A stretch of 64,000 nucleotides of DNA from a virus (taxonomy: Duplodnaviria > Heunggongvirae > Uroviricota > Caudoviricetes), in IMG/VR virus record IMGVR_UViG_3300024308_000004, positions 38,641 to 102,640 of that record. One strand, written 5' to 3'. The position numbers and the translations under genes were made by a program. Each line of letters starts with the position of its first letter. Position 1 is the first letter of the stretch. Positions 2,842 through 46,913 of the stretch are shown here, piece after piece. The notes under the pieces were generated by a model, which saw only the letters and a program-made list of their open reading frames with translations, searched no databases and was not told where the DNA came from.

Positions 2842-4198
2842 GAAAATCTATATTTCCGCATCAAATCTGGGACACGCTCGCAACATTGCGAGCCGTGTGT
2901 CTGAAATCGTTCAGGGCGACGCTGACACGCCGGTGTATTGGAAGCGTACTTTGTGGTACGCGTACAACCCGTACATTCGATTCGGCGTCAAGATGACACC
3001 CGGTCTTGAGGTTCAAATCATCGATGCTTCACAGAAAGGCTCGGACGGCTGGGACATTGATGCGCAGGAAATTTGGGACCTGTTGGATGAATTCTCCAAG
3101 TCCACTGAAAGCGCATCCAAGAAATCCGATCGCCTGATTACGTTCGCCAGCAATCTGAACATTCATGCCGCATGGACTCTGGCGCATATTATTGCCAAGT
3201 CGATTGCGGTTGGCACTTCGGAATCGACCGTCAACAAGGCGTTCAAGGACTTCATCCCGGTATTCAACGTGCAGTTAGCCGCGAAGTTCTCGGAGAAGAA
3301 GATCAAGGCTACTTTGCCAGCATACGTGGAAATCAAACACGATGGTATGCGTGCAATCGGTAAGGTCTTCCCGACCTGGGAAGTTGAAATCGTCACCCGC
3401 AAGGGTCATCCGATTCCAGCGGCAGCGCCGATGCACAAGAACCTGGTCAACTTAGCCAAGGCTTATAAGAAGCTGACGGACGGTAAGATCGAATGGCAGG
3501 GCATGGTGTCCGACGGTGAACTGATGGGTGGTTCGTTCAATGAAACCATGTCGGCATATCGTAGTAGCACCGCAACCGATTCGGGCTTCTATCATGTGTT
3601 TGACATTTTGCCGATGCAGGTGCTGACGGTTGATGGATATGTTACCGACCCGTTCCGTGAACGACGCGAGCTACTGCGCCAGGCGTTTGAGTTGGCTGAA
3701 CAGGTGACACCGTTTACGGACGTGATCCGGTCGAAGTCATTCGTGGCATCCAGCGTCACCGAAATCTACACCATGTACGAACAGTTCCGCGCCGACGGCC
3801 ATGAAGGCGCGATCATCAAGACCGGTGACGGTACTTGGCAATGCAAGCGCACGTCGGATTGGCAGAAGATCAAAGCCTGTGAGACCGAAGACCTGCCGAT
3901 TATCGGTGCGTTTGAAGGCGAAGGTGAAATGGTCGGCATGTTGGGTGGCTTTATCGTTGATCGTGGTGGCGTGCATGTGCAGGTTGGCTCAGGCTTAAAG
4001 CTGGCAGACCGTATCGCTTGGTGGGAAGCCGTGCAGCGTGACTTTGCCAAAGCCCGCACGGGCATCACGGACCCTGAGGAGTTTGAAATCATCGGGTGTC
4101 TGGCCGAAATCAACTACCAAGAGGTAACTCCGGATGGTTCGTTACGCCACCCAGTCTTCATCCGTCTCCGCAAAGACAAGAACGAGGTGTCCTTCTAA
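2831..4198 (+). CDS. ATP-dependent DNA ligase
   Basis: Adenylation motif I KHDGMR (KxDG), nucleotidyltransferase plus OB-fold length, motif EGAIIK. GGAG RBS before the ATG. Confidence 0.85.
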   Translation: MKAEKIYISASNLGHARNIASRVSEIVQGDADTPVYWKRTLWYAYNPYIRFGVKMTPGLEVQIIDASQKGSDGWDIDAQEIWDLLDEFSKSTESASKKSDRLITFASNLNIHAAWTLAHIIAKSIAVGTSESTVNKAFKDFIPVFNVQLAAKFSEKKIKATLPAYVEIKHDGMRAIGKVFPTWEVEIVTRKGHPIPAAAPMHKNLVNLAKAYKKLTDGKIEWQGMVSDGELMGGSFNETMSAYRSSTATDSGFYHVFDILPMQVLTVDGYVTDPFRERRELLRQAFELAEQVTPFTDVIRSKSFVASSVTEIYTMYEQFRADGHEGAIIKTGDGTWQCKRTSDWQKIKACETEDLPIIGAFEGEGEMVGMLGGFIVDRGGVHVQVGSGLKLADRIAWWEAVQRDFAKARTGITDPEEFEIIGCLAEINYQEVTPDGSLRHPVFIRLRKDKNEVSF

Positions 4199-4791
4199 TG
4201 AAGAAATTGATCCTGTTGGTGGGTCCGACTTGCTCGGGTAAGTCCACGCTTGAAAAGGAACTGAACAGCCTGGGTGTGCCCAGTGTTATCTCTTACACCA
4301 CCCGTGCCCTGCGCACGGGTGAAACGAACGGAGTGGATTATTACTTCGTCAGCCACGAACAAGCGAAGGCATACGAAGAAGCTGGCTTGACCATTCAGAA
4401 GGTCGAGTTCTCGGGTTACTCCTATGGCTCTACTGTTGGTTCACTGAACGAGGCTTTCCGCAATTCTGAGGTCGCGGTGATGGTTGTAGAACCAACCGGT
4501 GTTGCCCAGTTCCAGGAAGTCGCAAAGCGGCTTGGATGGTTCAAAGTGGTTTCGCTGTATGTGCATGGCGAATGGACCACTTTATGTGACCGGCTTATCG
4601 CTCGCTACAATGCAGATAAGAACGCGCGCGATGAATACTATTGGCAACGCTTTATGCAAATGTCCCAAGCGTACCGTGAATGGCCAACGTATATTGCATA
4701 CACGGATCGAATCGCGTCGATTGATGATCGTGACCCCTGGCGCTCCACTCACAGCTGGGCACTCCGCATTCTTGACACGCATTGCCGTTAA
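4198..4791 (+). CDS. gmk: Guanylate kinase-like nucleoside monophosphate kinase
   Basis: P-loop GPTCSGKSTL followed by the guanylate kinase signature TTRALRTGETNGVDYYFV. ATG overlaps the ligase stop. Confidence 0.7.
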   Translation: MKKLILLVGPTCSGKSTLEKELNSLGVPSVISYTTRALRTGETNGVDYYFVSHEQAKAYEEAGLTIQKVEFSGYSYGSTVGSLNEAFRNSEVAVMVVEPTGVAQFQEVAKRLGWFKVVSLYVHGEWTTLCDRLIARYNADKNARDEYYWQRFMQMSQAYREWPTYIAYTDRIASIDDRDPWRSTHSWALRILDTHCR

Positions 4792-4830
4792 CATTCACGC
4801 CAAGGTTTACACTGGCGTTAACACTCACGC
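4786..4830. repeat. Two 14-nt direct repeats (CGTTAACAYTCACGC) in the gmk-cobT intergenic region
   Basis: ccgttaacattcacgc at ~4786 and cgttaacactcacgc at ~4816, each containing a GTTAAC palindrome. Possible operator or promoter element. Confidence 0.4.
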
Positions 4831-4871
4831 TATCATTACAACGCGTTGACGATCAGCGCACAAGGAAAAAC

Positions 4872-6851
4872 GTGACAAACAGGGCATTGAAAAACATTGC
4901 GGAGATTGCGGAGGTCGTGGCTCGTGTCACGCGCATCCTGTCGGGCCGCAATATTCAGGTCATCCAAGAGGGCCTGAAACTCGGCGTGGAGTACGATTCA
5001 CAGGGCGCTCCCGTCCGTGTGTATCTGCCCTCGCTGGTGGACAATCCGTCCGACGAACTGCTGGTTGCAGTGCATGGCTTCCTCGACCGCGAAGTCTCGA
5101 CCCTTTTGTATACGGATCATGCGGAGACCCATCGTCGCCGCATGTCTCCGCAGTACGGCAAGAAGGGTATGCACCGTGCGATGCAGAGCGTCGTTGAAGA
5201 AGTCCGCACCGAGCGCAACATGCGCCAGGACTTCGTGGGCTCGGCTCACAACTTCAACAAGAACCACGAATTCGCAATCGATGAAATCCTGGAGCCGGAG
5301 TACAAGAAGCTCCGGGGTACGGATCGTATGGCGTTGCTCGCAATGCCCGCGATCCGTGCAGCAGCGGGTGATCCGCGCTATCAGAAGTTCATGGACGGCA
5401 AGTGGGAGTCGCTGGGCAAACTCGGTGGTTCGATCCTGCATTACGCCGATGACATTGCTGAGTCGAAGACCACCAAGGACACGTATGAGCTGACCGAAAA
5501 GATCATGCGTCGCTGGGAAGAGGAAGAAAAGAAAAACGGCGACGACGAAGGTGATGGCGACGGTGACGGTAAGGGCAAGTCGAAAGGCGAAGCTGGTGCC
5601 GATGATGCCGACGGTGGCATGGGCGCTGGTGGTGGCGAAGACGACGACAGCGAAGCTGGTGAAAACGGCGAAGGTTCTCCGTATGAGAATCTGGACAAGA
5701 AGAACGAGCACCTGGACAAGCGCCATGAACAGGATGACGCCCGCGACCCGAACTCAGGTAGTTCTGGCCAACAGCAGGGTCTGACCGAGTTCAAGAAGGA
5801 CTTGGAAGATTCGTTCGCCGCTTCTGATTGGAACTCCAAGTATGAGGAGAAGATCAAGAAGCTCGCCAAGGATGAACAGTCCACTGCGCCGTATGTGCCG
5901 TATTCGCGGCAGTACGATTATGTCGGTCCGTTCCCCAATGCCGACAAGCAGATCGCCCGCTTCTCGACCACGCAGACTGCGCTCAAGGTGTACGAGCAGG
6001 CTGTCACCAACTCGCATGTGATCCAGAACCAGATTCAGAAGTTGTTCATGGCGAAAGCTCTGGTGCGCTGGGAACCCGGTCTGCGTCGCGGCAAGATCAA
6101 CGCGACGAGCCTGCACAAGCTGCGCACTGGTGACCCGCGCGTGTTCCGTCGCAAGATTGAATCGGACGACCGTAACATTGCGGTGTCGTTGCTGCTGGAT
6201 ATCTCCGGCTCCATGTCCGGCTCAAAGGTTCAGTACGCAGCCATTGCGGCCTTGATGTTCTCGCAAGTGCTGTCGAAGCTGAATATCAGCCACGAGATTT
6301 CGTGCTTCTCCACGTACTACGGATCCTACATGGGCAGTGCCTTGCCCGACGCCGATGCCATCAACAAAATGCTTTCGGGCATTGGTGCAAGCCGTGGTTG
6401 GGGTGTGGGTGCAGTCAGTGGCATCACGTATGGTCGCTATGCGCCCATCACGAACTACATCGCCAAGTCCTACGACGGACGACTCGATGAATCCACGAAG
6501 CGCCTGATCTGCATGATCCCGGATGGGTTCAGCAATCTCCGCGCCAACAACGTCGATGGTGAATCCGTCGCAACTGCGGGTCAGCGTCTGCTGGCTCGAC
6601 AAGAAAAGCGAAAGGTGATGATCGTAATGTCAGACGGCAGTCCTGCTGCTGACGGCGATGGTCGCGCTCTCGCAAAGCACCTGAAAGATGTGGTCAAGTC
6701 ATTGTCACAGCAGGGTGTCGAAATGCTTGGGCTGGGTATGCTGGACAGGTCTGTCACGCATTACTATCCCAAGTCTGTAGTGGTTAACGAGGTGGAAGAT
6801 ATTCCCACCAAAATTCTGGAACTCACCAAACAACTGGTCGTCGGAGCGTAA
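4872..6851 (+). CDS. von Willebrand factor A domain protein, CobT-like (partner of the CobS-like AAA+ ATPase)
   Basis: C-terminal vWA with MIDAS DxSxS (LLLDISGSMSG) and later T/D residues. Long acidic low-complexity linker (5512-5760, runs of D/E/G). GTG start after an AAGGAAAAA RBS; in-frame ORF opens at 4782. Confidence 0.7.
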   Translation: MTNRALKNIAEIAEVVARVTRILSGRNIQVIQEGLKLGVEYDSQGAPVRVYLPSLVDNPSDELLVAVHGFLDREVSTLLYTDHAETHRRRMSPQYGKKGMHRAMQSVVEEVRTERNMRQDFVGSAHNFNKNHEFAIDEILEPEYKKLRGTDRMALLAMPAIRAAAGDPRYQKFMDGKWESLGKLGGSILHYADDIAESKTTKDTYELTEKIMRRWEEEEKKNGDDEGDGDGDGKGKSKGEAGADDADGGMGAGGGEDDDSEAGENGEGSPYENLDKKNEHLDKRHEQDDARDPNSGSSGQQQGLTEFKKDLEDSFAASDWNSKYEEKIKKLAKDEQSTAPYVPYSRQYDYVGPFPNADKQIARFSTTQTALKVYEQAVTNSHVIQNQIQKLFMAKALVRWEPGLRRGKINATSLHKLRTGDPRVFRRKIESDDRNIAVSLLLDISGSMSGSKVQYAAIAALMFSQVLSKLNISHEISCFSTYYGSYMGSALPDADAINKMLSGIGASRGWGVGAVSGITYGRYAPITNYIAKSYDGRLDESTKRLICMIPDGFSNLRANNVDGESVATAGQRLLARQEKRKVMIVMSDGSPAADGDGRALAKHLKDVVKSLSQQGVEMLGLGMLDRSVTHYYPKSVVVNEVEDIPTKILELTKQLVVGA

Positions 6852-6857
6852 ACAACA

Positions 6858-8039
6858 ATGTCCAATGAAGAAATGATTACCTGTCAGGTTCCGGGGTGCG
6901 GCGAAACTGCCCACATCATGGAACAGCATCTGGCGTCCAAGCACCCCGAGTACAACCTGGAACGCTATCAGGCGGAATTCCCGGGAGCCCCGATCATCTC
7001 CGAGAAGGCTCGCAAGGTTCTGGCAGCCCGTACAGCGAGCGCTCGCCCCGCAACGACGGCTGAACCGACAGCAACTACCGTCGCTGTCGCCAAGAAGACC
7101 GTACAGCGCAAGCCGTTCCACGAAGTCTTCGGCTTCTCCAAGACGGATCGCGCTGCATTGTCCGCAAAGGGCGCTCCGATCGGCATCCGCGTCTTCGAGC
7201 CGGATGAACTGACTCCGGAAGCTCGCGCAACGGTGCCGGACAAGGATTCGGACTACGTGTTCAACGTGGACCTGACCAAGACCGTTGTGATGGCTCTGGA
7301 AATGAACGTGCCGATTTATCTGCACGGTCATGCCGGTGTCGGCAAGTCGACCCTGCTGGAGCAGGTCGCGCATCACACCTATCGCGGCTACACCCGCGTA
7401 CAGCACACGGCCAACATGGAAGAAGCCGACGTTGAAGGTCGTTACATCGTCAACGCGAAGGGCGAAATGGAATTCCAGAACGGTCCGCTGACCGACGCGA
7501 TGGAGCAGGGTCTCCTGTACGTCGCCGACGAATACGACTTCGCTCCTCCGATGGTGCTGTCGGTGTATCAGGCAGTTCTGGAAGGCAAGCCGCTGTTCAT
7601 CAAGGCTGCGAACAAGAAGGTTGTACCGCATCAGAACTTCCGCTTCTGCGCAACGGGTAACACGAACGGTGCCGGTGATGAATCGGGCCTGTACCAGGGC
7701 ACGATGGTCCAGAACGCGGCCAACTACGAACGCTTCGGCGTCGTGGAGAAGGTGCAGTACATGCCGCAGAAGGACGAAATCGAAATGCTGGTGCGCAAGA
7801 CCAGTATCGCCCACGAAGATGCCAAGCGTATCGTGGACTTCGCCACCAAGATGCGTGAAGGCTTCGACAAGAACGACGTGGATATCCCCATGTCGCCGCG
7901 TGCAACCCTGAATGCTGCGAAGCTGGGTATGGCACGTAACGACATGTCGTTCGGCATCAAGGTCGCGTACATCAATCGTCTGCCTGCTCGCAGTGCGGAC
8001 GTTGCACGTCAGACTTCCCAGCGCGTCTTCGGTTCGTAA
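6858..8039 (+). CDS. AAA+ ATPase, MoxR/CobS-like
   Basis: Walker A HGHAGVGKSTL, Walker B LLYVADEYD, sensor region CATGNTNG. It is the typical partner of a vWA protein. N-terminal Cys/His cluster CQVPGCGETAH. Confidence 0.75.
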   Translation: MSNEEMITCQVPGCGETAHIMEQHLASKHPEYNLERYQAEFPGAPIISEKARKVLAARTASARPATTAEPTATTVAVAKKTVQRKPFHEVFGFSKTDRAALSAKGAPIGIRVFEPDELTPEARATVPDKDSDYVFNVDLTKTVVMALEMNVPIYLHGHAGVGKSTLLEQVAHHTYRGYTRVQHTANMEEADVEGRYIVNAKGEMEFQNGPLTDAMEQGLLYVADEYDFAPPMVLSVYQAVLEGKPLFIKAANKKVVPHQNFRFCATGNTNGAGDESGLYQGTMVQNAANYERFGVVEKVQYMPQKDEIEMLVRKTSIAHEDAKRIVDFATKMREGFDKNDVDIPMSPRATLNAAKLGMARNDMSFGIKVAYINRLPARSADVARQTSQRVFGS

Positions 8040-8059: not shown

Positions 8060-8767
8060 ATGCGGTCTCATCAGGCAGATGAGGCCGCACTTGCTCAGTG
8101 GGCTCCGCTGATTAACAAATTGGCGTTTGCGGCTGCGCAGCGTGCGGCAGGTCTTGGACTGGAAATGGATCACGCAGATTTCGTACAGGAAATCAGCATC
8201 GTGGTTCTGCGTTGTCAGGATTCGTTTGACCCGTCGAAGGAAGTCAAGATGATTACCTTCTTGTACCGGTCCATCTACAACGAACTGAACAAAATTTTCG
8301 CCAAGGAAGAGTCACGTCGCAGGATCGACCTGGAGTGTGAGGAATACATTGACAAGGATGGCAAACCGTCGAAGCGTCTGAAAAACGTTGTCGGCTTTAA
8401 GGTATCTGGCGATACAACCTGGTCGTCAGAAGACGGCGACGAATCCGTTTGGGGACATATCGAAGACGAACAGGCTCAGCCTGATGAAATCGCCGAAGAT
8501 GCCCAGCTGATGGACTTCGTGCATCGTCACGCAACGGATGAAATCTCATCCATTCTGACCCTGCTTGAATCTGGGTCCCCAGTTATTACCGCTCAGCTCC
8601 AAGCGTATAATTTCGGAGTCGAAGCGGACGCGAACGCAGGTGGCATCCGGAGGTTCCAGTTGGATATGGACTTCTCGTTCATCTGCAAGCTGCTCGGGTA
8701 TCCGCCCAGCAAGACTTCGCGCCTCGCGTCGCAAGTGAAATCCATCATCGCACAATACGGGAATTGA
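8060..8767 (+). CDS. ECF-type sigma factor-like protein
   Basis: Region 2-like DFVQEISIVVLRCQDSFDPSKEVKMITFLYRSIYNELNKIF (compare ECF consensus DLVQETFLKAWR...FSTWLYRIARN). C-terminal helix-turn-helix-like segment ICKLLGYPPSKTSRLASQVKSII. Confidence 0.5.
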   Translation: MRSHQADEAALAQWAPLINKLAFAAAQRAAGLGLEMDHADFVQEISIVVLRCQDSFDPSKEVKMITFLYRSIYNELNKIFAKEESRRRIDLECEEYIDKDGKPSKRLKNVVGFKVSGDTTWSSEDGDESVWGHIEDEQAQPDEIAEDAQLMDFVHRHATDEISSILTLLESGSPVITAQLQAYNFGVEADANAGGIRRFQLDMDFSFICKLLGYPPSKTSRLASQVKSIIAQYGN

Positions 8768-8768
8768 T

Positions 8769-9365
8769 ATGACCACGGTAGGCTGCTTTGGTAGCGTTGT
8801 CTACTTCGATCCGGAAGGTCGTCGTTGCAACGCTTGCTCTCTGAAAGGAGACTGTCAAGTCAAGGTGACCGAGAATGAAGCGCTGCTGGGCGATCTGATG
8901 GCTCAGCTGCGTGGCAAAGACAAGACGACCTCGAAGGCGCGTAAGCGTGCCATGTCTGCGGTCGCATCCACTGACGATGGGTTGAAATCTGCAAGTGACG
9001 ATAAGCAAGAGACGCGCGAAACGAAGCCGGTAATCAAGGCAAGCGATACGTCCGGACTTAACGTCAAGGCAGCAGAATTCGTCCATCGCTGGGAAGCAAA
9101 GGGTATTGACTTCGGAGCAACGAAGTCTGGGGTCAATCCCTTTACTGGTTCTGGCAACAAGTTTGCAGTCGTTGCCGTCGACCTGCTGTTGCAGCGTGGG
9201 TCGTGTACCAAAATGGAGATGACGGATCATCTGATCGAACACGCCGGAGCGCGTGGACCGTGGGGGTCGGGCACCGCTTGCTCCCACACCAATATCGTAT
9301 TTGAAGCCTTTGCACACCTTGGGATTATTGAGGTCTCCGGTGGCAAAGCATACTTGAAGAGGTAA
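8769..9365 (+). CDS. Hypothetical protein with N-terminal Cys cluster
   Basis: CFGSVVYFDPEGRRCNACSLKGDC motif. Lies immediately downstream of the sigma-like gene with a 1-nt gap. Confidence 0.4.
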   Translation: MTTVGCFGSVVYFDPEGRRCNACSLKGDCQVKVTENEALLGDLMAQLRGKDKTTSKARKRAMSAVASTDDGLKSASDDKQETRETKPVIKASDTSGLNVKAAEFVHRWEAKGIDFGATKSGVNPFTGSGNKFAVVAVDLLLQRGSCTKMEMTDHLIEHAGARGPWGSGTACSHTNIVFEAFAHLGIIEVSGGKAYLKR

Positions 9366-9367
9366 AG

Positions 9368-12300
9368 ATGACAGACAAAGTAATGTGGGGCTTCCAGACG
9401 CACTTTAGCGTCGGAGAATCCATCATCGATCCGGAGGAGGGCGTCAAGCTCGCCTCCGAAAACGGCTATACGCACGTTGCCCTGGCGGACACAATGTCCG
9501 TCTCGGCGCTTATCAGTGCGACCAAGCAGGGCAAGAAGTCCGGGGTGAAGGTTATCCCGGGTGTGACCCTGCGCGTCAAGAATCCGTATGTAGAGTGGGG
9601 CTATTTGTATCCACGCGTGTACGCCAAGACAGAAGCCGCAATGAAGCGGCTCTATGCGTTGTTGTCCGACACCGAAAAGGACCGCGACTGGCATTACGTC
9701 ACGCTGGAAAAACTCTGCGATGCGCTCGCAGATGACATGACGGTTGCGTCAGGGGTAGTGTATGGCCTGTTTGGGTCGTCGCTCACCGTAGCGCAGCGCG
9801 ATGAAGTGATCGCTAAGATCGAGGATCGCGTGGGCCGCAATTCCATCAACTTCATGGTTGACGTTGCCGCAATCGAGACGCCTGCTTATGCGATGCAAAA
9901 CGCCGCTGGCATTCTCGCAGCGCGTGGTAAGGAATGGGTGACGGCGATCAACCCGATTGCGCTGTACGCTCGTCCAGGCGATCACGATGCGCGTGACGTG
10001 ATGGGCGCGCTGTTGGCTCGCCGTAAGATCAGCATGGGCACCATGCGTTGGTTCCCGTCGCACAACCGCAATATCAAACCTTTCGGTGAAGTCGAAAAGG
10101 AACTGGAGAATTCGCTGGTTCTGGCTGGTAGCATTGGTTCGCCAATCGTTCACGCTGATTACATGGCGACGTATATAGCGCCGGTATTCCCGTATGAATA
10201 CTACTGGGAAAAATCAGGCCCTGCCATGCCGCAGATGGCTCCTGATGAATTCGAGGAACTGAAATCGCAGTGCAAGGCCCGTTTTGCCGATCGCATCATG
10301 CGACCGGTGTTCGGCTATCAGCCCGACAAGGCTGATCTACCCAAGTATGTGGAGCGCCTGAAATATGAATTGGACATTCTCGGCAAAATGGGTTTCTCGG
10401 GATACTTCCTTCTCGTCGCCGACCTCGTACAGTGGTCCAAAGACAATGGCATTATCGTGGGACCTGGACGCGGTTCTGTTGGCGGGTCTCTTGTCGCCTT
10501 CATCATGGGTATTACGGAAGTTGATCCTATCCGCTTCAATCTCCTCTTTGAGCGATTCATCAACCCCGGACGAAAGGACTTACCCGACGCTGACTTGGAC
10601 TTTCAGTCTGAGCGACGCCATGAAATCATCGGGTATCTCCGCGACCGATATGGACTGGACAATGTTGCGGGGATTAGTAACTACAACACTTTACAAGGAG
10701 CTGGCTCCCTTCGCGATGTTGGCAAAGCTCTCGGTCTGACGGAGAAGGATTATGAGTGTTCAAAGCTTGTCCCGAAGGTACACGGTATACCAGTCGCACT
10801 TGCGGAAGCGCGTCACACCGTCGCAGACATTGACCAGTTCGCCAAGACTCACCCCGAAGCCTTCGACATTAGCTGCCGACTTGAAGGTGTTCTCCGAGCT
10901 ATGGGCCAGCACGCAGCCGGCGTGGTTGTTTGCCACGAGCCTCTGACGAATCGTGCGGTCGTAGAAACGCGCGCCAAGGATCAGTGTATCAATTGGGACA
11001 AGCGTGTGTCGGAAGAACAAGGCTTGGTCAAGATCGATATTCTGGGTCTGTCCAACTTGGACGTGATCGAGAAGGCGTTCAACAAAGTCCGGGATGAAAC
11101 AGGCAAGAAGATCGATATCCTGGATATTGACCTGAACGACCGCAAGGTCTTGGATGCGTTCGGTCGTGGTGAAACTATCGGCGTGTTCCAGTTTGAGTCC
11201 TCGGGTATGCGTAAGCTCCTGAAAGACTTGCAAAAGGGTGGTGATCTGACCTTCGAGGAACTGTCGGCAGCAATGTCGCTGTACCGTCCGGGTCCGATGG
11301 ATTCGGGCATGTTGTCCGACTTCGTTTCGATCCGTCAAGGCGCCCAGGAACCGTACTACGACCACGACAACATGCGTCCTGCCCTGGAAGTAACGGGTGG
11401 CGTGATTATCTATCAGGAGCAGGTCATGCAAGTGGCCCGCGACCTCGCTGGTTTCAGCCTGCAAGAAGCTGACGACCTGCGAAAAGCGATGGGTAAGAAA
11501 GACAAGGACGCAATGGCTGAACAGCGCGACAAGTGGGTCGATGGTTGCGTTGCGCATTCTGGAATGAATGATCGTGTTGCAGGTGCCTTGTTCGACAAGA
11601 TCGAAGCCTTCGCAGGCTATGGTTTCAACCGCTCCCACTCGATTGAGTATTCCATTATCTCGTTCGTGTCCATGTGGCTGAAGGTCTATCACCCTCTGCA
11701 ATTCTACGCAGCGTCCTTGGAGGTTCTTGGCGAAGATAAACTCCTGGGTCTTATCGAGGACGCGGCCAAGCGCGGTATTAAGGTGTTACCTCCTGATATC
11801 AACGGGAGCGATGGCAGCTTTAAGCGCGATGGGTCTGGTAAAAACCTCACCTGCCCCTTCAACCGACTCAAAGGCTTGTCCGACAACACCCAAGCCGCGA
11901 TCCTCACGGCCCGCGAAGCTGGTCCATTCAAATCTAAGGCTGATTTCATCGCTCGGGTGGAAAAGCGCAAGTGCAACTCCCGGCACCAAGAAATCCTCGA
12001 CCGGGTCGGTGCGTTTGCGTCGGTAGAACCAGGCACGCCACCAGCAACATCACCCACTCGCGTGCGTGACCAGTTGGAACTCATGCCGGGGCTGGTCTCA
12101 GCCAAAGTAAACGTGGACCGTGAAGTTGTGTGGGATGAATTCACAAAGGAACAGATCAAGAAATTGGTCATCGATCCGGCAATGGACATTGCAGCTTCGC
12201 CCGTGATGCCCCGTTCGTCCAAGCAAATCCGGGCAATGGTTATCACCGACGCTGCGACCAAACAGGAAGAAAAGTCTGGCGCGTTCATGAATGGCAGCAA

Positions 12301-12679
12301 TGCTGATTACGTCCGCGAAGCCGTTGAAGAAGCTGGTGGTAAATGGAACAAGGGGTTCTACTATACGGCGTTGTGTAAGGTGCCCAAGAAGGATAAGCGG
12401 TTGACTGGTAAGGAAATTTCCGATTGGAAGCCCTTGCTGATGAAGGAAATCGCCATCATCCAGCCACCCATCATCATCGCCCTTGGCTCCGAAACGGCTC
12501 GCATGTTGGTCCCGGATTTGAAGGGCCCAATTAAGGAACTTGCCGGTAAGGTGGTCTATAATAAGGAACTCGATGCGAACATCGTTATCGGCATCAACCC
12601 TGGCATGATCTACGTGGACGAGTCCTCGATGGAACTGTTGGTGAAGACTTTTGATACGGTGCGAGAACTGACCGAATGA
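9368..12679 (+). CDS. dnaE: DNA polymerase III alpha subunit (DnaE-type) with C-terminal UDG-superfamily-like domain
   Basis: N-terminal PHP domain, and the Pol III alpha core [71 protein letters not shown]. The last ~160 aa resemble family-4 UDG in motif order but with the catalytic motifs replaced. Confidence 0.9.
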   Translation: [1103 protein letters not shown]

Positions 12680-12706
12680 CCCCTCCATATACTATAGGTG
12701 CAAGCA

Positions 12707-13240
12707 ATGACAACAACGACAACGATTCCCCCGATCACGGAGTATTACGACCGCGAACTGGCTAAGAAGCATTTATCCACGTTCAACTCGGATTTATCGG
12801 TTGACTTCATGCGCCAAGCTGCGCTGTATGCCTATTGGGCAGCGAAGCTGGTGCAGGCGGAATCACAGTATGATCGGTTGCAGGATACCCTGCGACTGAT
12901 GGAGGCGAGACTGGACAGGGTTGTCCGTGATGATGCAGCTAAGGCTGGTACCAAGGTCACCGAAGCGCAGGTGGCTAAGACTGTCGCGCTTGACAGTCGG
13001 GTTATCACTATGGGTCAGCGTGTGCGTGAGGCGAAGGAGCAAGTTGGTTACTTGAAATCCACTTGTATCGCCTTTGCGCAGCGTAAGGACATGTTGCAGC
13101 AGATGGGTTTTGCCAAATCGAAGGAAGAAGCAGCTGCCGGGATGCACGTCAGGTCTTCCGCTCAGAGTAATCATAACGCCCGTTTGGAAAGGATGAGTCA
13201 TGCTAGATTAGACGATGATTTGGGAGCGGAGGAAGGTTAA
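12707..13240 (+). CDS. Hypothetical coiled-coil protein
   Basis: ORF between dnaE and the SSB gene. In-frame GTG at 12698, first ATG at 12707. Heptad-like charged repeats. Confidence 0.4.
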   Translation: MTTTTTIPPITEYYDRELAKKHLSTFNSDLSVDFMRQAALYAYWAAKLVQAESQYDRLQDTLRLMEARLDRVVRDDAAKAGTKVTEAQVAKTVALDSRVITMGQRVREAKEQVGYLKSTCIAFAQRKDMLQQMGFAKSKEEAAAGMHVRSSAQSNHNARLERMSHARLDDDLGAEEG

Positions 13241-13453
13241 ATAGTCCGCACTCAACTAGGCTATTAGGGGAATAACCCCATATTTATGATAGAAGCATCC
13301 GGACCTAACGGTTAATTGTGTAGCTCTGTCCAGGCGGTGAAAGCCGGCTCGTACATCACGCAATTCAAGGCCACTAGCGATAACCCGCTGGTGGCCTTTC
13401 TTCGTTTAGGAAGATTTATTTTCAACCCAGTTGCAACATTTCTCGCTTCCCGA

Positions 13454-13461
13454 GGTATAAT
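13454..13461 (+). promoter_or_regulatory. Putative -10 element GGTATAAT upstream of the SSB gene
   Basis: ttgcaa...(19 nt)...GGTATAAT lies 47 nt upstream of the ATG at 13508. The leader ends in an AAAAAGGA RBS. Confidence 0.3.
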
Positions 13462-13507
13462 AGTGACACAAGCGAGACACTCTCAAACACAACAAAAAGG
13501 AACACAA

Positions 13508-14344
13508 ATGGCCCTCTTAGACATTATCAAAGCCAATCGCGCCAAGCTCCAGCGTGGTGCCAACAACCGCACTGAGAAGCTCCAGTCGGGCAAGAGCACC
13601 GTTCGCATCCTGCCGTCCTGGACTGGCAGCGAGGACGATGAATTCTCCCAGGCTTGGGGTCAGCACTTCATCAAGGACACTGGTGGTAATCTGAAGGCAG
13701 TTTACATCTGCACCAATACCATCTTCGATGAAGTCTGCCCGATCTGCGAAGCCATTGCGCAAGGCATGGCCACCAACAACGACGAAGATATCCTGAAGGC
13801 TATGAAGGATGGTCGTTCCAGCAAGCGTATCCTGGTGAATGCGCTGTACCTGTCGGGTGGTAAGAACGAGAATCCGACCACCAACCCCGTCGTGCTGGAA
13901 CTGCCGCCGACCGTTTTCGAGAAGATCCTGGCTGCTGCTGCGACCTTCCTGGAAGAAGGCGTCAACGTGTTCAGCCTCAAGGAAGGCCATAACTTCATCA
14001 TCGAAAAGACTGGTGCTGGTATGAACACGGAATACTCCGTCACGCCGTCCCCGCGTGGTAGCGCTGTCAGCATCACCACCGATAAGCTGGTGAACCTGGA
14101 AGATTGGGCACGTCAGGAAGGTGAAGCTGACAAGCAGAAGGCTCTGGCGTCGGTTCGTGCGATTGCCGGTGTTGCAGAAGTCAGTCATACCGCTCCGCGC
14201 CTGGCCGCTCCGACCAGCAACTCGGCGACCAATGCTCGACTGCGTGATACCAACGTTGTTGACGCCGACTTTGAGGACGTTGTTGAACAGAAGCCGGACT
14301 TGTCGGGTTCGGATAACATCGACGACTTCCTGGGCGAACTGTAA
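13508..14344 (+). CDS. Single-stranded DNA-binding protein, T4 gp32-like
   Basis: VRILPS (compare T4 IRFLPS), a Cys/His zinc site (CTNTIFDEVCPICE) and an acidic C-terminal tail DNIDDFLGEL. The upstream in-frame extension from 13316 is judged noncoding. Confidence 0.75.
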   Translation: MALLDIIKANRAKLQRGANNRTEKLQSGKSTVRILPSWTGSEDDEFSQAWGQHFIKDTGGNLKAVYICTNTIFDEVCPICEAIAQGMATNNDEDILKAMKDGRSSKRILVNALYLSGGKNENPTTNPVVLELPPTVFEKILAAAATFLEEGVNVFSLKEGHNFIIEKTGAGMNTEYSVTPSPRGSAVSITTDKLVNLEDWARQEGEADKQKALASVRAIAGVAEVSHTAPRLAAPTSNSATNARLRDTNVVDADFEDVVEQKPDLSGSDNIDDFLGEL

Positions 14345-14353
14345 GGAGTAACA

Positions 14354-14380
14354 AAGGGCCTCGCAATGAGGCCCTTTTCA
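14354..14380 (+). terminator. Rho-independent terminator after the SSB gene
   Basis: GGGCCTC-gcaat-GAGGCCC stem followed by a TTTT tract. The first ATG of the downstream ORF lies inside this hairpin. Confidence 0.6.
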
Positions 14381-14383
14381 TTT

Positions 14384-15328
14384 ATGGCTAATCATTACCT
14401 ACTTATCGACGCCAACAACCTGATGTATAGCGTCCAATACGGTGCGCGCAAACTGACTGCCGGTGAAACGGAAGTAACGTCAGTCTTCGGTGTGCTTGGC
14501 AAGGTTCGTGACTTGATGTGCAGGTATCCCAACGCAACTCCTATTGTTTTGTGGGATTCAAGCCCATCGTTTCGCGCTGACATTTATCCAGAGTACAAAG
14601 CGAATCGCAAGGAAAACAAACAGGTAGCAGCCATCACTGCTGCACTGCGTCCGCAACGTCCCATTCTGAAAGAAGTCCTGACACACTTGGGCGTCCGTCA
14701 ATACACAGTCCATAAGTATGAAGCGGATGATCTAGCAGCAGACTTGTCCCGGCGTATGTCGGCAGCAGGTCACAAGGTCACGCTTGTCACGCGTGACGGT
14801 GACTGGCAGCAGTTGGTAGACCACAATGTCACTTGGTTCGATCACAAGACCGAAGTGTCGTTGACGCCCGAGAACTTTGAGGAAGTGACCGGCTACAAGA
14901 CGCCGTACCACTTTACAGAAGGCAAGATTATTCAGGGTGACGCAGGCGATAACGTCAAGGGTGTCGGTGGGCTGGGTGAAGGATCGGCAGCCATGATTAT
15001 GCGGGACTTTGAATCGCTGGATGATCTATACAACAAGTGGCATGAGTTTGAGCCTACGATTCAGAAGGGCACCGACTGGTCACGCAACAAGTTCCGGGTC
15101 GTAAAAGCCTTTGAGGACAAAGACTTATGGGCGAAGTACGATCTGAACCGCGCACTTATGGATCTAGTGTCGCGTCAATATACCGGGATACAGTACCAGA
15201 CTGACGCCCAGTATAATGAGCAAGCGGTTAAAGCAAAGTTTGCCGCACTAGGGTTCCATTCGATTCTGCGTAAGTGGGAGCCCTGGATTGAACCATTCTT
15301 ACGCACTGCCAAAAAGGAAAAACAATGA
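14384..15328 (+). CDS. 5'-3' exonuclease / flap endonuclease (T4 RNase H / FEN family)
   Basis: N-terminal PIN-like LLIDANNLMY, acidic metal-binding residues, H3TH region. The second ATG (14384) is preferred because the ATG at 14366 sits in the terminator stem. Confidence 0.75.
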   Translation: MANHYLLIDANNLMYSVQYGARKLTAGETEVTSVFGVLGKVRDLMCRYPNATPIVLWDSSPSFRADIYPEYKANRKENKQVAAITAALRPQRPILKEVLTHLGVRQYTVHKYEADDLAADLSRRMSAAGHKVTLVTRDGDWQQLVDHNVTWFDHKTEVSLTPENFEEVTGYKTPYHFTEGKIIQGDAGDNVKGVGGLGEGSAAMIMRDFESLDDLYNKWHEFEPTIQKGTDWSRNKFRVVKAFEDKDLWAKYDLNRALMDLVSRQYTGIQYQTDAQYNEQAVKAKFAALGFHSILRKWEPWIEPFLRTAKKEKQ

Positions 15329-16446
15329 GCCTTGATATTGATAACCTGATTAACGACGCTATTGGTGAAAACGATCCGCAGCAAGGAGTTCCCGGGTGGC
15401 TGGACACCGGTTACCCGCCTCTGAATAAGGCAATTTCCAGCATGTGGGACGGTGGTCTGCCGATGGGTCGCATGATCGAGATTTTCGGTCCCCCGTCATG
15501 TGGCAAGACTGCTGTGGCTACGAAGGCAATGGCTAGCGCACAGGCTATGGGTGGCGTTGCGGCATTCATGGATCACGAAACCTCGTTCGACATTGGTCTG
15601 GCGAAAGACCTGGGGCTGGATCCGACTTCGCGCTGGGTTTACAAGCAGCCCACTACGTTTGAGCAGTCCATTGATATGGTGAAAATTCTCGCCAAGCGAC
15701 TGCGGAATGTGGATGACAAGCTGCGCCCATTGAAGGGCAAAGCTCCGTTGCCAATGGACAAGCCGATTGTGGTTGTGTTCGACTCACTGGCTTCGATGGT
15801 TCCTGATTCCAAAATGTACGACTCCAAGGGCAAGATGAAGGAAGCTGGTGATAACACCATGCACGACAAGCTGGCCCTGGCAGCTGCAACCAGTTCGCAT
15901 TTCCCCCTGCTGGTTCAGATTGCCAACAAGTGCAATATTTGCCTGATCTTCCTGAATCAGGTCCGTACCAAGCCGGGTATTGTTTACGGCGATGCGACGA
16001 CTACGCCGGGTGGTAATGCTCCCGAGTTCAACGCGTCCGTTCGTATCGGCTTGACCCGCGAAATGATTAAGGACAAGGACAAGAACATCATCGGTCAGAC
16101 CGTCAAGGCGTTTGTTCGCAAGAACAAGGTCTCGGCACCTTTCAGGAAGGCTCAGTGGAACTTTATGTTCCGTGAAGATGGCTCGGGTTACTTCGACGTT
16201 GATGGTTCCCTGGTCGAACTGCTGGCTGATAGCGGTATCCTTGAGCGCGACGGCAATGGTTACATTTGGACCGACGGCAAGAAGTACATGAAGCCAGCGT
16301 TGAAGGAGAAGATCGAGAAGGAGAATCTCCGTCCGGAACTGCTGCGACTGCTGCAAGGCGTCGAACTGGAAGAAGGCGTCCTGGGTGATACTGTCGCCGA
16401 CTTCGGTCTGGAAGAGAACGACCACGAAGAAGGCGACGAGGAGTAA
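15325..16446 (+). CDS. RecA/UvsX-like recombinase
   Basis: GGLPMGRMIEIFGPPSCGKT Walker A (compare RecA [20 protein letters not shown]), FMDHE, IFLNQVR and TTTPGGNA motifs. Acidic C-terminus. Confidence 0.85.
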   Translation: MSLDIDNLINDAIGENDPQQGVPGWLDTGYPPLNKAISSMWDGGLPMGRMIEIFGPPSCGKTAVATKAMASAQAMGGVAAFMDHETSFDIGLAKDLGLDPTSRWVYKQPTTFEQSIDMVKILAKRLRNVDDKLRPLKGKAPLPMDKPIVVVFDSLASMVPDSKMYDSKGKMKEAGDNTMHDKLALAAATSSHFPLLVQIANKCNICLIFLNQVRTKPGIVYGDATTTPGGNAPEFNASVRIGLTREMIKDKDKNIIGQTVKAFVRKNKVSAPFRKAQWNFMFREDGSGYFDVDGSLVELLADSGILERDGNGYIWTDGKKYMKPALKEKIEKENLRPELLRLLQGVELEEGVLGDTVADFGLEENDHEEGDEE

Positions 16447-16870: not shown

Positions 16871-17953
16871 ATGACACGACCCATTCTCATTTTCTCCGAT
16901 CCGCATTACCACGATTTCTCCCAGTTCAGCACCATCAATGCGAACGGGTTGAACTCACGGCTTGCGGATACTTTGCGTGCCACGGTTGAGGCGTACAAGA
17001 GCGCCAATGCTCTGGGCGCATACACGGCTATTTGCTGTGGCGATATTTTCCATGTACGTGGCAAGGTCAAGCCTTCGGTTTTAAACCCCACGATGCAGAC
17101 ATTCCGGAACCTGCATGATCGTCTGGCGTTCCGTACGCACGCAATCAGTGGCAATCATGACCTGGAAACCGATAAGTCTTCCGACTTGAACTCGGCGATC
17201 ACTTCGCTGCGGTCGATTGAAGGCTTTGCGGTGCATTCTGAAAACATCTGCCACACGATGCTGGATGAATTCAGCGTGCAGGTGACTTTCATTCCCTGGG
17301 AGCCTGACCTGAAAAAGCTCCGTGCGCTTATTAAGGCTGGCCCAAGGAGCACTGACAAACCTACAGCGCTGGTCATCCACGCGCCCATGAATGGAGTTAT
17401 CAAGGGCTTACCGGATCATGGTCTGACGGTCGATGACTTCAAGGATTGCGGGTTCGACAAGGTATTTATTGGGCACTATCACAACCACAAGTCATTCAAG
17501 GTTGGCAAGACCGAAGTAATTTCAGTAGGCGCCTTGACCCATCAGAACTTCGGTGACGTGGAACATCGTGCAGGTTATCTATTGTGGTATCCCGACACGG
17601 GTAAGGTCGAGCAGTTCGCGACCAAGGCCCCGAGGTTCATACACGTCCCGGCTGATCGTGTGCAGGACTTGGTACCTGGTGCTGCGGCTGATAACTACAT
17701 CAAGGTTGTTGATGGTGAGTTTGAGAACGAGGCAGAAATCCAGGCGATCCGTGATGAACTGATCCTGAAAGGCGCCAAGGCTGTCGTAGTCGAAGGGATC
17801 ACTAAGCGTCCGGCAGTCACACGCGGGACCACTACGACTTCGGCAGCACCAACGATCCATTCGATCTTGGGTGATTACGTGCAACGGACTTATCCAGGTG
17901 ATGAAGCTGCGTTGGCTGAGGCTATGGATATTCTCAATGAGGTTTATGTATGA
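16871..17953 (+). CDS. SbcD/Mre11-like nuclease (T4 gp47-like)
   Basis: Calcineurin-like phosphoesterase motifs ILIFSDPHY, CCGDIFH, ISGNHD, GHYH. Confidence 0.75.
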   Translation: MTRPILIFSDPHYHDFSQFSTINANGLNSRLADTLRATVEAYKSANALGAYTAICCGDIFHVRGKVKPSVLNPTMQTFRNLHDRLAFRTHAISGNHDLETDKSSDLNSAITSLRSIEGFAVHSENICHTMLDEFSVQVTFIPWEPDLKKLRALIKAGPRSTDKPTALVIHAPMNGVIKGLPDHGLTVDDFKDCGFDKVFIGHYHNHKSFKVGKTEVISVGALTHQNFGDVEHRAGYLLWYPDTGKVEQFATKAPRFIHVPADRVQDLVPGAAADNYIKVVDGEFENEAEIQAIRDELILKGAKAVVVEGITKRPAVTRGTTTTSAAPTIHSILGDYVQRTYPGDEAALAEAMDILNEVYV

Positions 17954-19866
17954 GTATGGTTGAATTTGATCTGCTGGAAGTAACCTCGTTCATGGCGATC
18001 GGTGTTGCTCAGGTCAACCTGAAACAACGAGGTCTGGTATTCATTGAAGGCGAGAACCTGGATGACACCAGCGCACGGTCAAACGGCGCTGGCAAGTCTT
18101 CATTGGTCGATGCGATCAGTTGGTGCTTGTATGGCATCACTGCGCGTGGCGTGTCCGGTGATGCTGTCGTCAATCGCCAGGCGGGTAAGGGCACCGAAGT
18201 TGCCATGAATGTCTGGATCGATGGCAAGCTGTGGCGTATCGAACGTGGTCGCAAGCACAAGACCTTGAAGAACCGTGTACGCCTACTCCAGATGGACAGT
18301 GGTACGTGGCACGACTGTACGTTGGGCACGGATAAATTGACCCAAGAGCGCATCGACGCCTTGCTGGGTTGTAACGCAAAGACCTTCAACGATGCCGTGT
18401 ATATGGGCCAAGAGCGCATGGTTGATCTGCCCTCGATGACCGACAAGGTGTTGAAGTCCACGTTGGAACAGGCGCTGTCACTGGACCGGCTCGATGAAGC
18501 ACAGTCCATTGCTTCGATGCGGTTGGAGAACGCCAACATCGCCCATCGTCAGCATCGCTACGATATGGACGACCTGGTCCAAAAGGTCGTAAGCAACACC
18601 GACAAGCTCAAAGCCGCTGAGACCACAAAGATCCAGTTGGAATTCGATATGACCAATATCGAAGAAGAACGCCAGCGATTCCACAAGGATAATCTCCATA
18701 CAGTATCGATCGCAGCCAAAGAAGAAGAGGCTGCAACGTTGGAAGTGGCGCAGTGTATTAGCGCCGTGCGTGATGCGGAACTAGAAGTCGCAAAGGTCAA
18801 GGAAGAAATTAAACTGGTTGCTGCCGAGTCCAAGAAACTATTGGCCAATACCGACAAGCTCTTGGACGTGCTGACTGACATTCGGGCGTCACGTAAAATC
18901 CTGCACGACCACATCAACAATCCTAGTTCATGCACCACATGTAAGCGTCCGTTTGATGACCACGAAGACATTGAAGCCAAGCGTGCCGATCATCAAAAGG
19001 AATATGCTGCATTGGGTGTCAAGCTGGAGAAGGTGGTTCAAAAGCGTGCTGAACTGGCTGACAAGAACACGACGATGGTGACTGCGGCAACACGGGCTGA
19101 ACTGATGGCTGTATCCGCATTGGAATCGGCGCAATCGAAAGTCAAAGCCGCTGAGACCCGCTTGTCGAACGCTAAAGAGATACTGACAAAAGCGCGAACC
19201 AATGATAGGCTGTTGACGTTGGATCGCTGGCTCAAAGAGAAACAGGATCGCCATGATCAAATCGTCCGGGACATGCTCGTTATTGGTGAGGTGATCGCTG
19301 ACGCCACAGGTGAGGTCAAAGAGATTGAGGCGCGTCTGACTGAAAGCCAGGAGCGTATCGATACCTTGGAGCGCGTCAAGCACATCCTGTCACGCAAGGG
19401 TTTCCGTGGTGAAGTCCTGGATCAGGTCACGCCGTATCTGAATGCCCGGACTCAGTATTACCTAACGTGGTTGACTTCGGACAACATCACTGCGACATGG
19501 AACACTGTAACCGTAACCAGTAGTGGCGATCTGTCTGAGAACTTCCATATCAAAGTCGCACATCGTGAAGGCGCAGAGTCCTTTGAGGGCCTGTCTGGTG
19601 GTGAAAAGCGTAAGGTTCGCCTTGCGTGCGCAATGGCTCTGCAAGACTTGGTTGGTACGCGTGCGATCAAGCCTATTAAACTCTTTATCGCCGATGAAAT
19701 CGATGACGCCATTGACGAGTCCGGATTGGAGTTGCTGATGGGCCTACTGGAAGAAAAGGCGAAGTCAGTAGGCACCCTGCTGATTATCAGCCACAATGCG
19801 TTGGGGGATTGGTGCAAGGAAAGCATCACGGTTACCAAGAAAGACGGTGAGACGACCATTAAGTAA
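17950..19866 (+). CDS. SbcC/Rad50-like ATPase (T4 gp46-like)
   Basis: Walker A SNGAGKSSLVDAISWCLYG, a long coiled-coil with a CxxC zinc hook (CTTCKRPF), the ABC signature LSGGEKRKVRLA and D-loop FIADEIDDA. Confidence 0.8.
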   Translation: MSMVEFDLLEVTSFMAIGVAQVNLKQRGLVFIEGENLDDTSARSNGAGKSSLVDAISWCLYGITARGVSGDAVVNRQAGKGTEVAMNVWIDGKLWRIERGRKHKTLKNRVRLLQMDSGTWHDCTLGTDKLTQERIDALLGCNAKTFNDAVYMGQERMVDLPSMTDKVLKSTLEQALSLDRLDEAQSIASMRLENANIAHRQHRYDMDDLVQKVVSNTDKLKAAETTKIQLEFDMTNIEEERQRFHKDNLHTVSIAAKEEEAATLEVAQCISAVRDAELEVAKVKEEIKLVAAESKKLLANTDKLLDVLTDIRASRKILHDHINNPSSCTTCKRPFDDHEDIEAKRADHQKEYAALGVKLEKVVQKRAELADKNTTMVTAATRAELMAVSALESAQSKVKAAETRLSNAKEILTKARTNDRLLTLDRWLKEKQDRHDQIVRDMLVIGEVIADATGEVKEIEARLTESQERIDTLERVKHILSRKGFRGEVLDQVTPYLNARTQYYLTWLTSDNITATWNTVTVTSSGDLSENFHIKVAHREGAESFEGLSGGEKRKVRLACAMALQDLVGTRAIKPIKLFIADEIDDAIDESGLELLMGLLEEKAKSVGTLLIISHNALGDWCKESITVTKKDGETTIK

Positions 19867-45302: not shown

Positions 45303-45303
45303 A

Positions 45304-46779: not shown

Positions 46780-46913
46780 CCCCTCGGTATAATGAAAGAG
46801 TCGCTGACAACGGCGACTCTTTCTTTTGGAGGGTACATGAACGAAATGCCTTATGATCCCGAGAACCACTACGATGATGGTGAGTTCCCCGAAGAACCTT
46901 AATGGAGAAACAA

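Follow-up and report, generated by a model that had tools for sequence, protein, structure and literature searches.

What is a uracil-DNA glycosylase (UDG) fold doing at the end of a replicative DNA polymerase? This question is raised by a stretch of 64,000 nucleotides from a genome of the Caudoviricetes (IMG/VR virus record IMGVR_UViG_3300024308_000004, positions 38,641 to 102,640), which we refer to at its full length as the window, and which carries a gene for a DnaE-type, family C polymerase of 1103 amino acids. A preliminary description of this gene, made from the sequence alone, proposed that the usual OB and tau-binding region of the polymerase had been replaced by a degenerate UDG-fold domain, possibly with a DNA- or uracil-sensing or a protein-docking role. 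Here we show that the C-terminal tail indeed has a UDG fold, that it stands in the place of both the OB fold and the tau-binding C-terminal domain (CTD), that the residues needed for uracil excision have been lost from it, and that it is nevertheless functional and under strong purifying selection.

Searches with sequences, profiles and structures agree on the fold of the tail. The Pfam family UDG (PF03167, gathering score 24.3) is matched by residues 951-1062 with 29.3 bits in the full protein, and with 33.8 bits (E=4e-8) when the tail is searched in isolation. Using phmmer with residues 902-1103 against all PDB sequences, only family-4 UDGs were returned (TM0511, S. tokodaii UDG and Thermus UDGa), and a profile of 36 diverse tails of the family reached 4zbx at E=3.8e-22, TM0511 at 8e-18 and 1ui0 at 6.5e-15, with UDGX following at ~1e-12 and family 5 UDG at only 0.86. 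An AlphaFold2 model of the tail, for which an alignment of family tails served as input, has a mean predicted local distance difference test (pLDDT) score of 93.4 and a predicted template modelling (pTM) score of 0.89. When this model was compared to the PDB with Foldseek, the best 36 matches were all family-4 UDG or UDGX, with template modelling (TM) scores of 0.65-0.77 and E-values of ~1e-9 to 1e-11; TM scores were 0.73-0.77 for 1l9g, 4zbx and 1ui0, and the weaker matches were to family 5, TDG/MUG and SMUG at 1e-5 to 1e-4. The tail is thus a UDG fold far beyond chance, rather than an unrelated fold such as an OB domain, and among the UDG families it is nearest to family 4. The family-4 enzymes of Thermus thermophilus (Tth UDGa, 1ui0), TM0511 (1l9g/1vk2) and S. 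tokodaii (4zbx), together with UDGX, are its best matches in sequence as well as structure, and the family-4 UDGs share with it the order of secondary-structure elements and motifs. Unlike these enzymes, it lacks the catalytic His, the uracil-reading Asn, the GE(A/G)PG motif and all four iron-sulphur (Fe-S) cysteines, and it is fused to a polymerase. The motif order had already been likened to that of family-4 UDG, and alignment to hidden Markov models (HMMs) reproduces the pairings quoted at the time, the comparator peptides being those of Tth UDGa (1ui0). What does need adjustment is the start of the domain: it had been placed at 12190-12679 (residues ~942-1103 plus stop), a segment that does have the UDG fold, but the structural domain begins earlier, with a helix at residues 924-941 (nucleotide ~12137).

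The remainder of the protein is a DnaE core. All four Pfam domains expected in the polymerase portion, PHP, Pol3 palm/thumb, fingers and (HhH)2, score above threshold (Table 1; the core and finger matches are bounded at residues 297-560 and 563-730, respectively), and phrog_405 (DNA polymerase) matches residues 10-1100 at E=2.5e-265. A comparison by hhalign of 41 full-length family members with E. coli DnaE gave E=3e-133 over 858 columns and spans E. coli residues 8-895, so that the (HhH)2 domain is the final stretch homologous to cellular DnaE; E. coli residues 896-1160, which take in the OB fold, the tau-binding CTD and what remains of the beta-binding domain, have no counterpart in the family. 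A Pfam scan of the window protein likewise found no OB or tau-binding domain. In the AlphaFold2 model of the full-length protein (pLDDT 89.4, pTM 0.81), the (HhH)2 domain gives way to a helix (residues 896-905), and a short linker then leads to the alpha/beta UDG fold, which begins with helix 924-941. The end of the hhalign homology, the Pfam scan and the model thus concur with the earlier suggestion that the OB fold and tau-binding CTD have been replaced, in this case by a conserved linker and the UDG-fold domain.

The linker itself deserves some attention. Its family consensus is R-x-[RK]-D-Q-x-E-L-[LM]-P-G-[LIV], of which the Q-x-E-L-[LM]-P-G part lies 15 residues past the HhH, and R898 and Q902 are at least 90% conserved among the 41 full-length homologs. 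It resembles beta-clamp motifs of the QL[SD]LF type, with QAELM in the SSU5 protein and QADMF at residues 920-924 of E. coli DnaE, although the linker motif and the E. coli QADMF were out of register in the MAFFT alignment, and the hhalign homology ends before the latter, at 895. Judging from this resemblance and from its place after the HhH, the linker may be a candidate beta-clamp-binding motif that recruits the host clamp, or else an interdomain connector.

How far has the UDG-like domain departed from an active enzyme? In Tth UDGa, the wild-type k2/Km of 2.4e5 drops to 9.4e1 for H155S (a ~2500-fold loss), 2.7e2 for E41Q, 5.5e3 for N80A and 1.4e4 for F54A (Xia et al. 2017, PMC5387724). The equivalents of all four residues are changed in the window protein, in line with the proposal that the catalytic motifs had been replaced. 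We followed these positions through a MAFFT alignment of 124 of the clusters found with HMMER. E41 has become D961, with Asp in 108 of the 124 members; N80, which reads N3 and O4 of uracil, has become A1001, where the family has Ser (35), Ala (31), Gly (24) or Thr (21); the stacking Phe, F54, corresponds to M974, at a position that varies between L, M, G and F; and the catalytic H155 is replaced by N1077, with Asn in 70, Ser in 24, Thr in 15 and His in 11 members. Among their neighbors, G42 corresponds to A962 (A, C, G or S in the family) and P43 to A963, even though Pro is kept in 104/124; E47 is retained as E967 (Glu in 91/124), and N89 falls in an insertion and has no equivalent. As such, motif 1, which reads m-x-V-G-E-G/A-P-G-x-x-E-D in family 4, is not kept: its G-E-(A/G)-P-G is T-D-A-A-T in the window protein and x-D-[ACGS]-P-[TNS] in the family consensus. 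The preliminary description had paired GEGPG with ITDAA and HPAY with NPGM; both replacements hold, but the register of the first has to be shifted, since GEGPG lies opposite T960-D-A-A-T964. For motif 2, the alignment with 4zbx puts 'TYHPAA' opposite 'GINPGM', and in the segment Y998-K1007, besides the change of the uracil-reading Asn to Ala, an Fe-S Cys has become Val.

The sequences that do retain His at position 1077 are instructive. Full-length (~1100 aa) DnaE proteins are absent from these 11, which comprise eight short standalone UDGs and three proteins of other architecture, P0109 (518 aa), P0121 (1840 aa) and P0133 (815 aa). The canonical E/N/H triad is confined to seven short standalone UDGs, which are among the weakest matches in the alignment, and Asn at position 1001 occurs only in standalone canonical UDGs. 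Conversely, almost all of the ~100 DnaE-associated clusters combine D961 with a small residue at 1001 and N, S or T at 1077, and D961, E967, Y998, T1000, K1004 and P1078 are near-invariant in the family. The positions of the family-4 [4Fe-4S] ligands are taken by non-Cys residues in the window protein (M939, V1005 and W1020), which has no CxxC. About half of the family does keep a C-x2-C...H-P motif (C939, H945) together with C1020, at positions equivalent to residues 936-945 and 1020 of the window protein (nucleotides ~12173-12202 and 12425-12427); this is a remnant of the family-4 [4Fe-4S] site, or possibly a zinc site. All of these residues are lost in the window protein and its close relatives.

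Most of the residues that determine the UDG fold have been retained in the tail. Because the residues that recognise and excise uracil have been lost, it is very unlikely from the alignments that the tail domain is a uracil glycosylase. Could it still sense uracil, or a damaged template base, without cleaving? Such a domain would bind the base and stall or signal the polymerase, much as archaeal family-B polymerases respond through their read-ahead uracil pocket, and a fold and pocket scaffold that are retained while the catalytic His is gone would be in keeping with it. However, the Asn that confers uracil specificity is absent from all fused members, the stacking Phe is not conserved, and family-C polymerases offer no precedent for a sensor of this kind, so that we regard it as improbable. 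The non-catalytic sensing or docking role put forward in the preliminary description is a reasonable suggestion, of which uracil sensing appears the least likely version, given that the uracil-reading Asn has given way to Ala in the window protein and to S, A, G or T in the family.

A loss of catalytic residues could also mean that a formerly active, fused UDG is now decaying, and the disappearance of the Fe-S ligands would agree with that. This explanation is effectively refuted by the ratio of nonsynonymous to synonymous substitution rates (dN/dS), which we calculated by the Nei-Gojobori method between the window gene and its orthologs in Stenotrophomonas phages ANB28 and BUCTxx99 (dS ~0.6-0.9). 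The UDG-like domain (residues 951-1103) has a dN/dS of 0.05-0.06, as low as that of the polymerase core (residues 1-887; 0.07-0.08), and the linker (residues 888-950) reaches 0.02. Moreover, the domain is kept in more than 100 clusters, and it has conserved features of its own that are missing from canonical UDGs, among them R1045-x-[FL]-x-P-[DG]-x-K1052-G and, in the linker, [RK]-D-Q-x-E-L-[LM]-P-G-[LIV]. The probability that the tail is a mere remnant is therefore very small indeed; being conserved as strongly as the polymerase core, it serves something essential.

The architecture as such is not new. Related, plasmid-borne DnaE variants in which the OB and CTD are replaced by UDG (PF03167) were described from Yersinia pestis and Salmonella enterica strains by Timinskas, Balvociute, Timinskas & Venclovas (NAR 2014, PMC3919608), who draw DnaE-UDG (the 'DnaEX' architecture) in their Figure 3; that work covers the architecture only, with nothing on catalytic degeneracy, selection or function. 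Earlier, Kazlauskas & Venclovas (2011, PMC3201878) had made no assignment for the C-terminal region of viral family-C polymerases. The PHP-Pol3-(HhH)2-UDG(PF03167) layout of DnaE-UDG is that of the window protein. SSU5-type proteins align over 97% of its length at 36-38% identity and share its key motifs, and the SSU5 tail is 100% identical to the tail on one Y. pestis plasmid; because of this full-length homology and this identity, the window protein belongs to the published DnaE-UDG family. It differs from the published cases in coming from another lineage, a virulent-type Stenotrophomonas phage, in being further diverged, and in having the motif-1 Pro replaced by Ala. The fusion can be detected by a standard Pfam scan, and the GenBank note for RHEph10 gp048 already lists 'uracil-DNA glycosylase-like' among its DnaE domains, so that what the window protein adds to the architecture is a Stenotrophomonas phage case. 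Our literature searches found no functional study of a DnaE-UDG fusion, and no analysis of the catalytic state of, or selection on, the fused domain.

The extent of the family becomes apparent only through exhaustive searching. Word-indexed searches with the tail or a tail profile gave only 3-5 close relatives, and exhaustive HMMER was needed to reveal 227 clusters at E<=1e-3, 116 of them at E<=1e-10. In a phage collection, a DnaE match was present in 1424 records, but with at least 80% query coverage in only 29. Full-length homologs with 36-45% identity occur in RHEph10-type Rhizobium phages, nickie-like Pseudomonas phages, and SSU5-like phage-plasmids of Salmonella, Escherichia and Klebsiella, and the tail is conserved in over 100 clusters at 50% identity, from phages of Stenotrophomonas, Rhizobium, Pseudomonas, enterobacteria and Acinetobacter. 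The survey of phage DnaE homologs that had been suggested thus shows the fusion to be widespread. Among plasmids, the SSU5-type tail was found in 974 PLSDB records (Klebsiella 346, Escherichia 219, Acinetobacter 137, Enterobacter 91, Yersinia 63, Salmonella 49, and others), which include plasmids of Y. pestis and SSU5-like phage-plasmids of clinical Klebsiella, E. coli, Enterobacter and Acinetobacter.

In some of these relatives the gene is split. Some 30 clusters consist of proteins of ~380-420 aa that start at query residue ~730 (window position ~11555), just past the finger domain, and share a conserved N-terminus 'MK[IV]K.[IV]..L.DG'. In a metagenomic relative (L010:1-3027), the N-terminal part of DnaE is followed by a free-standing HNH/NUMOD4 homing endonuclease and then by an open reading frame (ORF) for HhH + UDG-like; in A. 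baumannii plasmids (L012:902-5145), dnaE (785 aa) and a NUMOD4 protein precede an ORF of 421 aa. Since a homing endonuclease splits the gene in ~30 clusters, the HhH + UDG-like module can stand on its own, as a polypeptide apart from the core. We also considered whether the ~390 aa homologs could be C-halves of split inteins, and rejected this: they have ~10 extra N-terminal residues without intein motifs, and the endonuclease between the halves is free-standing. PGAP names the 421 aa product 'uracil-DNA glycosylase family protein' even though the catalytic residues are absent, and names of this type for the split C-terminal piece are probably wrong as a functional statement.

So what does the domain do? 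Taking the whole package together, we lean, with moderate confidence, towards a non-catalytic module for DNA handling or processivity that makes up for the missing OB domain. The UDG-like domain would grip template or duplex DNA beside the polymerase, thereby taking over the DNA-binding job of the OB domain, and would raise processivity in a replisome for which no phage-encoded clamp or clamp loader was found. In addition, the Q-x-E-L-[LM]-P-G motif of the linker could recruit the host beta clamp. By analogy, such a role would be comparable to that proposed for the inactive UDG domain of N4-like PolA and to that shown for poxvirus D4, and if true, it would mean that a family-C replicase can dispense with OB, tau, and perhaps its own clamp machinery. 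Several points weigh against it. The tail is near-neutral (median pI 6.4, net charge 0), whereas most of the canonical UDGs in the set are more basic, though its bulk pI and charge are uninformative on function. The putative clamp motif is a resemblance in sequence, and its segment is predicted to be helical and ordered (pLDDT ~86-88 for helix 896-905 in the full-length model), unlike many clamp-binding peptides. Pocket positions as strongly conserved as D961 and E967 suggest that a ligand pocket could still be in use. Lastly, E. coli MUG, a family-2 member of the UDG superfamily with an NPSG motif, has Asn in place of the motif-2 His; because such His-less enzymes exist in the superfamily, the missing His is by itself no proof of inactivity on every substrate.

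These last points lead to the question whether the domain is an active glycosylase after all, with altered chemistry or specificity. It would then use D961 and a MUG-like N1077, with the small residue at 1001 making the pocket larger, and would flip and excise a template base ahead of the polymerase. The resemblance of the motif-2 Asn to the NPSG of MUG fits this idea, as do the six near-invariant residues listed above, and the ATP-dependent ligase and 5'-3' exonuclease of the phage could process the resulting abasic sites. Fused UDGs that are active and read deoxyuridine (dU) in the template do exist in phage PolA, as in the SP15-like phages (Missoury et al. 2025 preprint, 10.1101/2025.03.26.645540). 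On the other hand, all residues with a demonstrated role in Tth UDGa are altered together, the stacking aromatic is not constant within the family, and in the window protein the motif-1 Pro has gone as well (A963). The nucleotide metabolism of the phage offers little reason for such an activity either. A dCMP deaminase, a dUTPase-family protein and ThyA indicate ordinary thymine DNA and canonical dTTP synthesis, with an enzyme that would lower dUTP, and given these three proteins there is no obvious need for uracil excision. Among the window ORFs scanned we saw no base-modification genes, and no PolX was found, unlike in most SP15-like phages. On balance, we consider an altered glycosylase quite unlikely.

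Protein docking has somewhat different arguments in its favor. Here, the UDG-like domain would replace the tau-binding CTD in function as well as in place, and couple the polymerase to another protein of the replisome without binding DNA itself; candidates for such a partner are the DnaB-like helicase or primase, the DnaQ-like exonuclease, the gp32-like single-stranded DNA-binding protein (SSB), and the small ORFs that directly adjoin the polymerase gene on both sides. The tail sits exactly where cellular DnaE has its tau-binding domain, its near-neutral charge would suit a docking surface, and where the gene is split, the separate HhH + UDG-like polypeptide must reassemble with the core. Poxvirus D4, furthermore, acts through a protein bridge, A20 (PMC4889955). 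Small ORFs also flank DnaE at these positions in the Rhizobium, Pseudomonas, SSU5-like and metagenomic relatives, as matched by position alone. However, in a search for a hidden clamp or accessory factor, neither of the window ORFs had a Pfam match, and the downstream one had no PDB match either, so that these ORFs lack a recognisable fold or family. Judging from the alignments, conservation in the tail is highest at the classical motifs of the UDG fold for DNA and the base pocket, and not on a new surface. Docking without DNA binding thus seems to us an unlikely explanation, albeit one with some merit.

The DNA-handling or processivity role that we favor can be set against other cases in which a UDG fold accompanies a replicase. 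Poxvirus D4 is a separate family-1 UDG subunit that is still catalytically active. Together with A20, D4 (E4) is the processivity factor of the family-B polymerase E9, and as such a UDG-fold protein in a structural role for a replicase (PMC3201878, PMC4889955); unlike the tail described here, it is bridged by A20 to a family B polymerase and not fused to one of family C. By analogy with vaccinia D4/A20, the N-terminal UDG of SPO1 and T5 PolA has been proposed as an intrinsic processivity factor (Kazlauskas & Venclovas 2011, PMC3201878). A close parallel is found in N4-like PolAs, which have a family-4 UDG domain with catalytic residues that are not conserved, and for which a role in processivity has been suggested (Czernecki et al. 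2023, PMC10201439). As in the window protein, a phage replicase is fused to a family-4-type UDG fold, and N4-like PolAs (Motura, pEa_SNUABM_5 and SBP1) are among the structural matches of the tail model; the polymerase is, however, of family A instead of C, its UDG domain is N-terminal and lies between the exonuclease and polymerase domains, and that domain also lacks a helix and a beta-hairpin. In SPO1- and SP15-like PolA the UDG fold is likewise physically coupled to the replicase, and the SP-15 DNA polymerase is a structural match of the tail, but these PolAs have retained the catalytic motifs. The UDG of SP15-like PolA is active: it excises template dU ahead of the fork and is placed as the UDG of the Mpox holoenzyme is (Missoury et al. 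2025 preprint, 10.1101/2025.03.26.645540). SP-15, YerA41 and RP13 carry hypermodified thymidines and most such phages encode PolX, whereas the window phage has genes for ordinary dTTP synthesis. It is tempting to go one step further, and propose that the UDG fold was recruited into a third unrelated replicase family as a clamp-independent processivity or template-gripping element, or as a base-flipping template reader of new specificity that uses the conserved D961/E967/N1077 pocket; with either, the family-C replicase would function without the canonical apparatus of OB, tau and clamp loader. We deem this broader proposal rather doubtful at present; if true, family C would join family A (SPO1, SP15, N4, T5) and family B (poxvirus) in the UDG-replicase partnership.

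Table 1. The polymerase gene, its domains and motifs, and neighboring genes in the window.
Feature	Residues	Window position	Strand	Basis
DnaE-type (family C) DNA polymerase gene	1103 aa plus stop	9368..12679	+	ORF list, phrog_405, hhalign
PHP domain	10-153	9395..9826	+	Pfam PF02811, 38.6 bits
Pol III alpha catalytic core and finger	297-730	10256..11557	+	PF07733 259.5 bits, PF17657 184.8 bits
(HhH)2 domain (HHH_6)	803-887	11774..12028	+	Pfam PF14579, 63.2 bits
Conserved linker R898-V-R-D-Q902-L-E-L-M-P-G-L909	898-909	12059..12094	+	family alignment, dN/dS 0.02
UDG-fold domain, family-4 type, catalytic residues replaced	924-1103	12137..12676	+	Pfam PF03167, profile, AlphaFold2, Foldseek
Motif-1 remnant M957-V-I-T-D961-A-A963-T-K-Q-E967-E968	957-968	12236..12271	+	HMM alignment to 1ui0, 4zbx, TM0511
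Y998-Y-T-A1001-L-C-K1004-V-P-K1007, remnant of Y-x-T-N-x-x-K-C-R-P-P	998-1007	12359..12388	+	HMM alignment
Motif-2 remnant G1075-I-N1077-P-G1079 (family 4: x-x-H-P-A/S)	1075-1079	12590..12604	+	alignment to 4zbx
DnaB-like helicase		3-1118		
Primase		1046-2188		
ATP-dependent ligase		2831-4198		
CobT-like (vWA-type) / CobS-like (MoxR-type AAA ATPase) pair		4782-8039		
Sigma-70-like factor		8060-8767		
Small ORF directly upstream of DnaE		8769-9365		phrog_3616
Small ORF directly downstream of DnaE		12698-13240		phrog_1069/2058
gp32-like SSB		13316-14344		
5'-3' exonuclease		14366-15328		
UvsX/RecA-like recombinase		15325-16446		
SbcD and SbcC		16871-19866		
dCMP deaminase		21221-21682		
Ribonucleotide reductase (RNR)		43253-46779		
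dCTP-deaminase/dUTPase-family protein		46902-47543		
ThyA		47543-48391		
DnaQ-like 3'-5' exonuclease		50334-50945	+	Pfam RNase_T 78.7 bits; phrog_192 'DNA polymerase exonuclease subunit' E=2e-42

The window comes from a Stenotrophomonas phage of ~108 kb, and the gene is that of its replicative polymerase. Its product is 93% identical to the DnaE of phages ANB28 and BUCTxx99, whose records label the orthologous protein 'DNA polymerase III subunit alpha', and the nucleotide identity around the gene is 87-88% to BUCTxx99 (OR529408) and ANB28 (PQ434692). Xanthomonas phage JGB6 is more distant, with 78% nucleotide identity over part of the gene region. In its record (OQ436456), the DnaE region is fragmented into several short coding sequences with product names at odds with what they encode (for example, 'AAA family ATPase' and 'metallophosphoesterase' on stretches of DnaE), which probably results from a frameshifted assembly and shifted annotation.

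The polymerase gene lies among other replication and recombination genes (Table 1). The separate DnaQ-like exonuclease that had been noted earlier is borne out by the match of its ORF to RNase_T, and it is a possible proofreading partner of DnaE; its gene lies ~38 kb from that of the polymerase. Both proteins match phrog_17, the exonuclease at positions 665-823 and the UDG-like tail of DnaE at positions 456-634; phrog_17 thus appears to combine a UDG-like region and, after it, one for an exonuclease. As had also been stated for the window, no clamp or clamp-loader domain was found among the window ORFs scanned or in the annotation of the relative BUCTxx99, with several small ORFs being without assignment. 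The two small ORFs that flank DnaE are candidate polymerase accessory subunits. The CobT-like/CobS-like pair and the sigma-70-like factor of the window are close upstream neighbors of the polymerase gene. Elsewhere, the neighbors of DnaE include a CobS-like gene in nickie and SSU5-like elements, and a sigma factor gene in RHEph10-like phages and Acinetobacter plasmids. At some distance from the polymerase, at positions 38783-39940, the window carries a gene for an RtcB RNA ligase, and the relative BUCTxx99 has a cluster of about a dozen tRNA genes (L009:32530-40100). By analogy, RtcB and a tRNA cluster such as that seen in BUCTxx99 may form a tRNA-repair counter-defence module.

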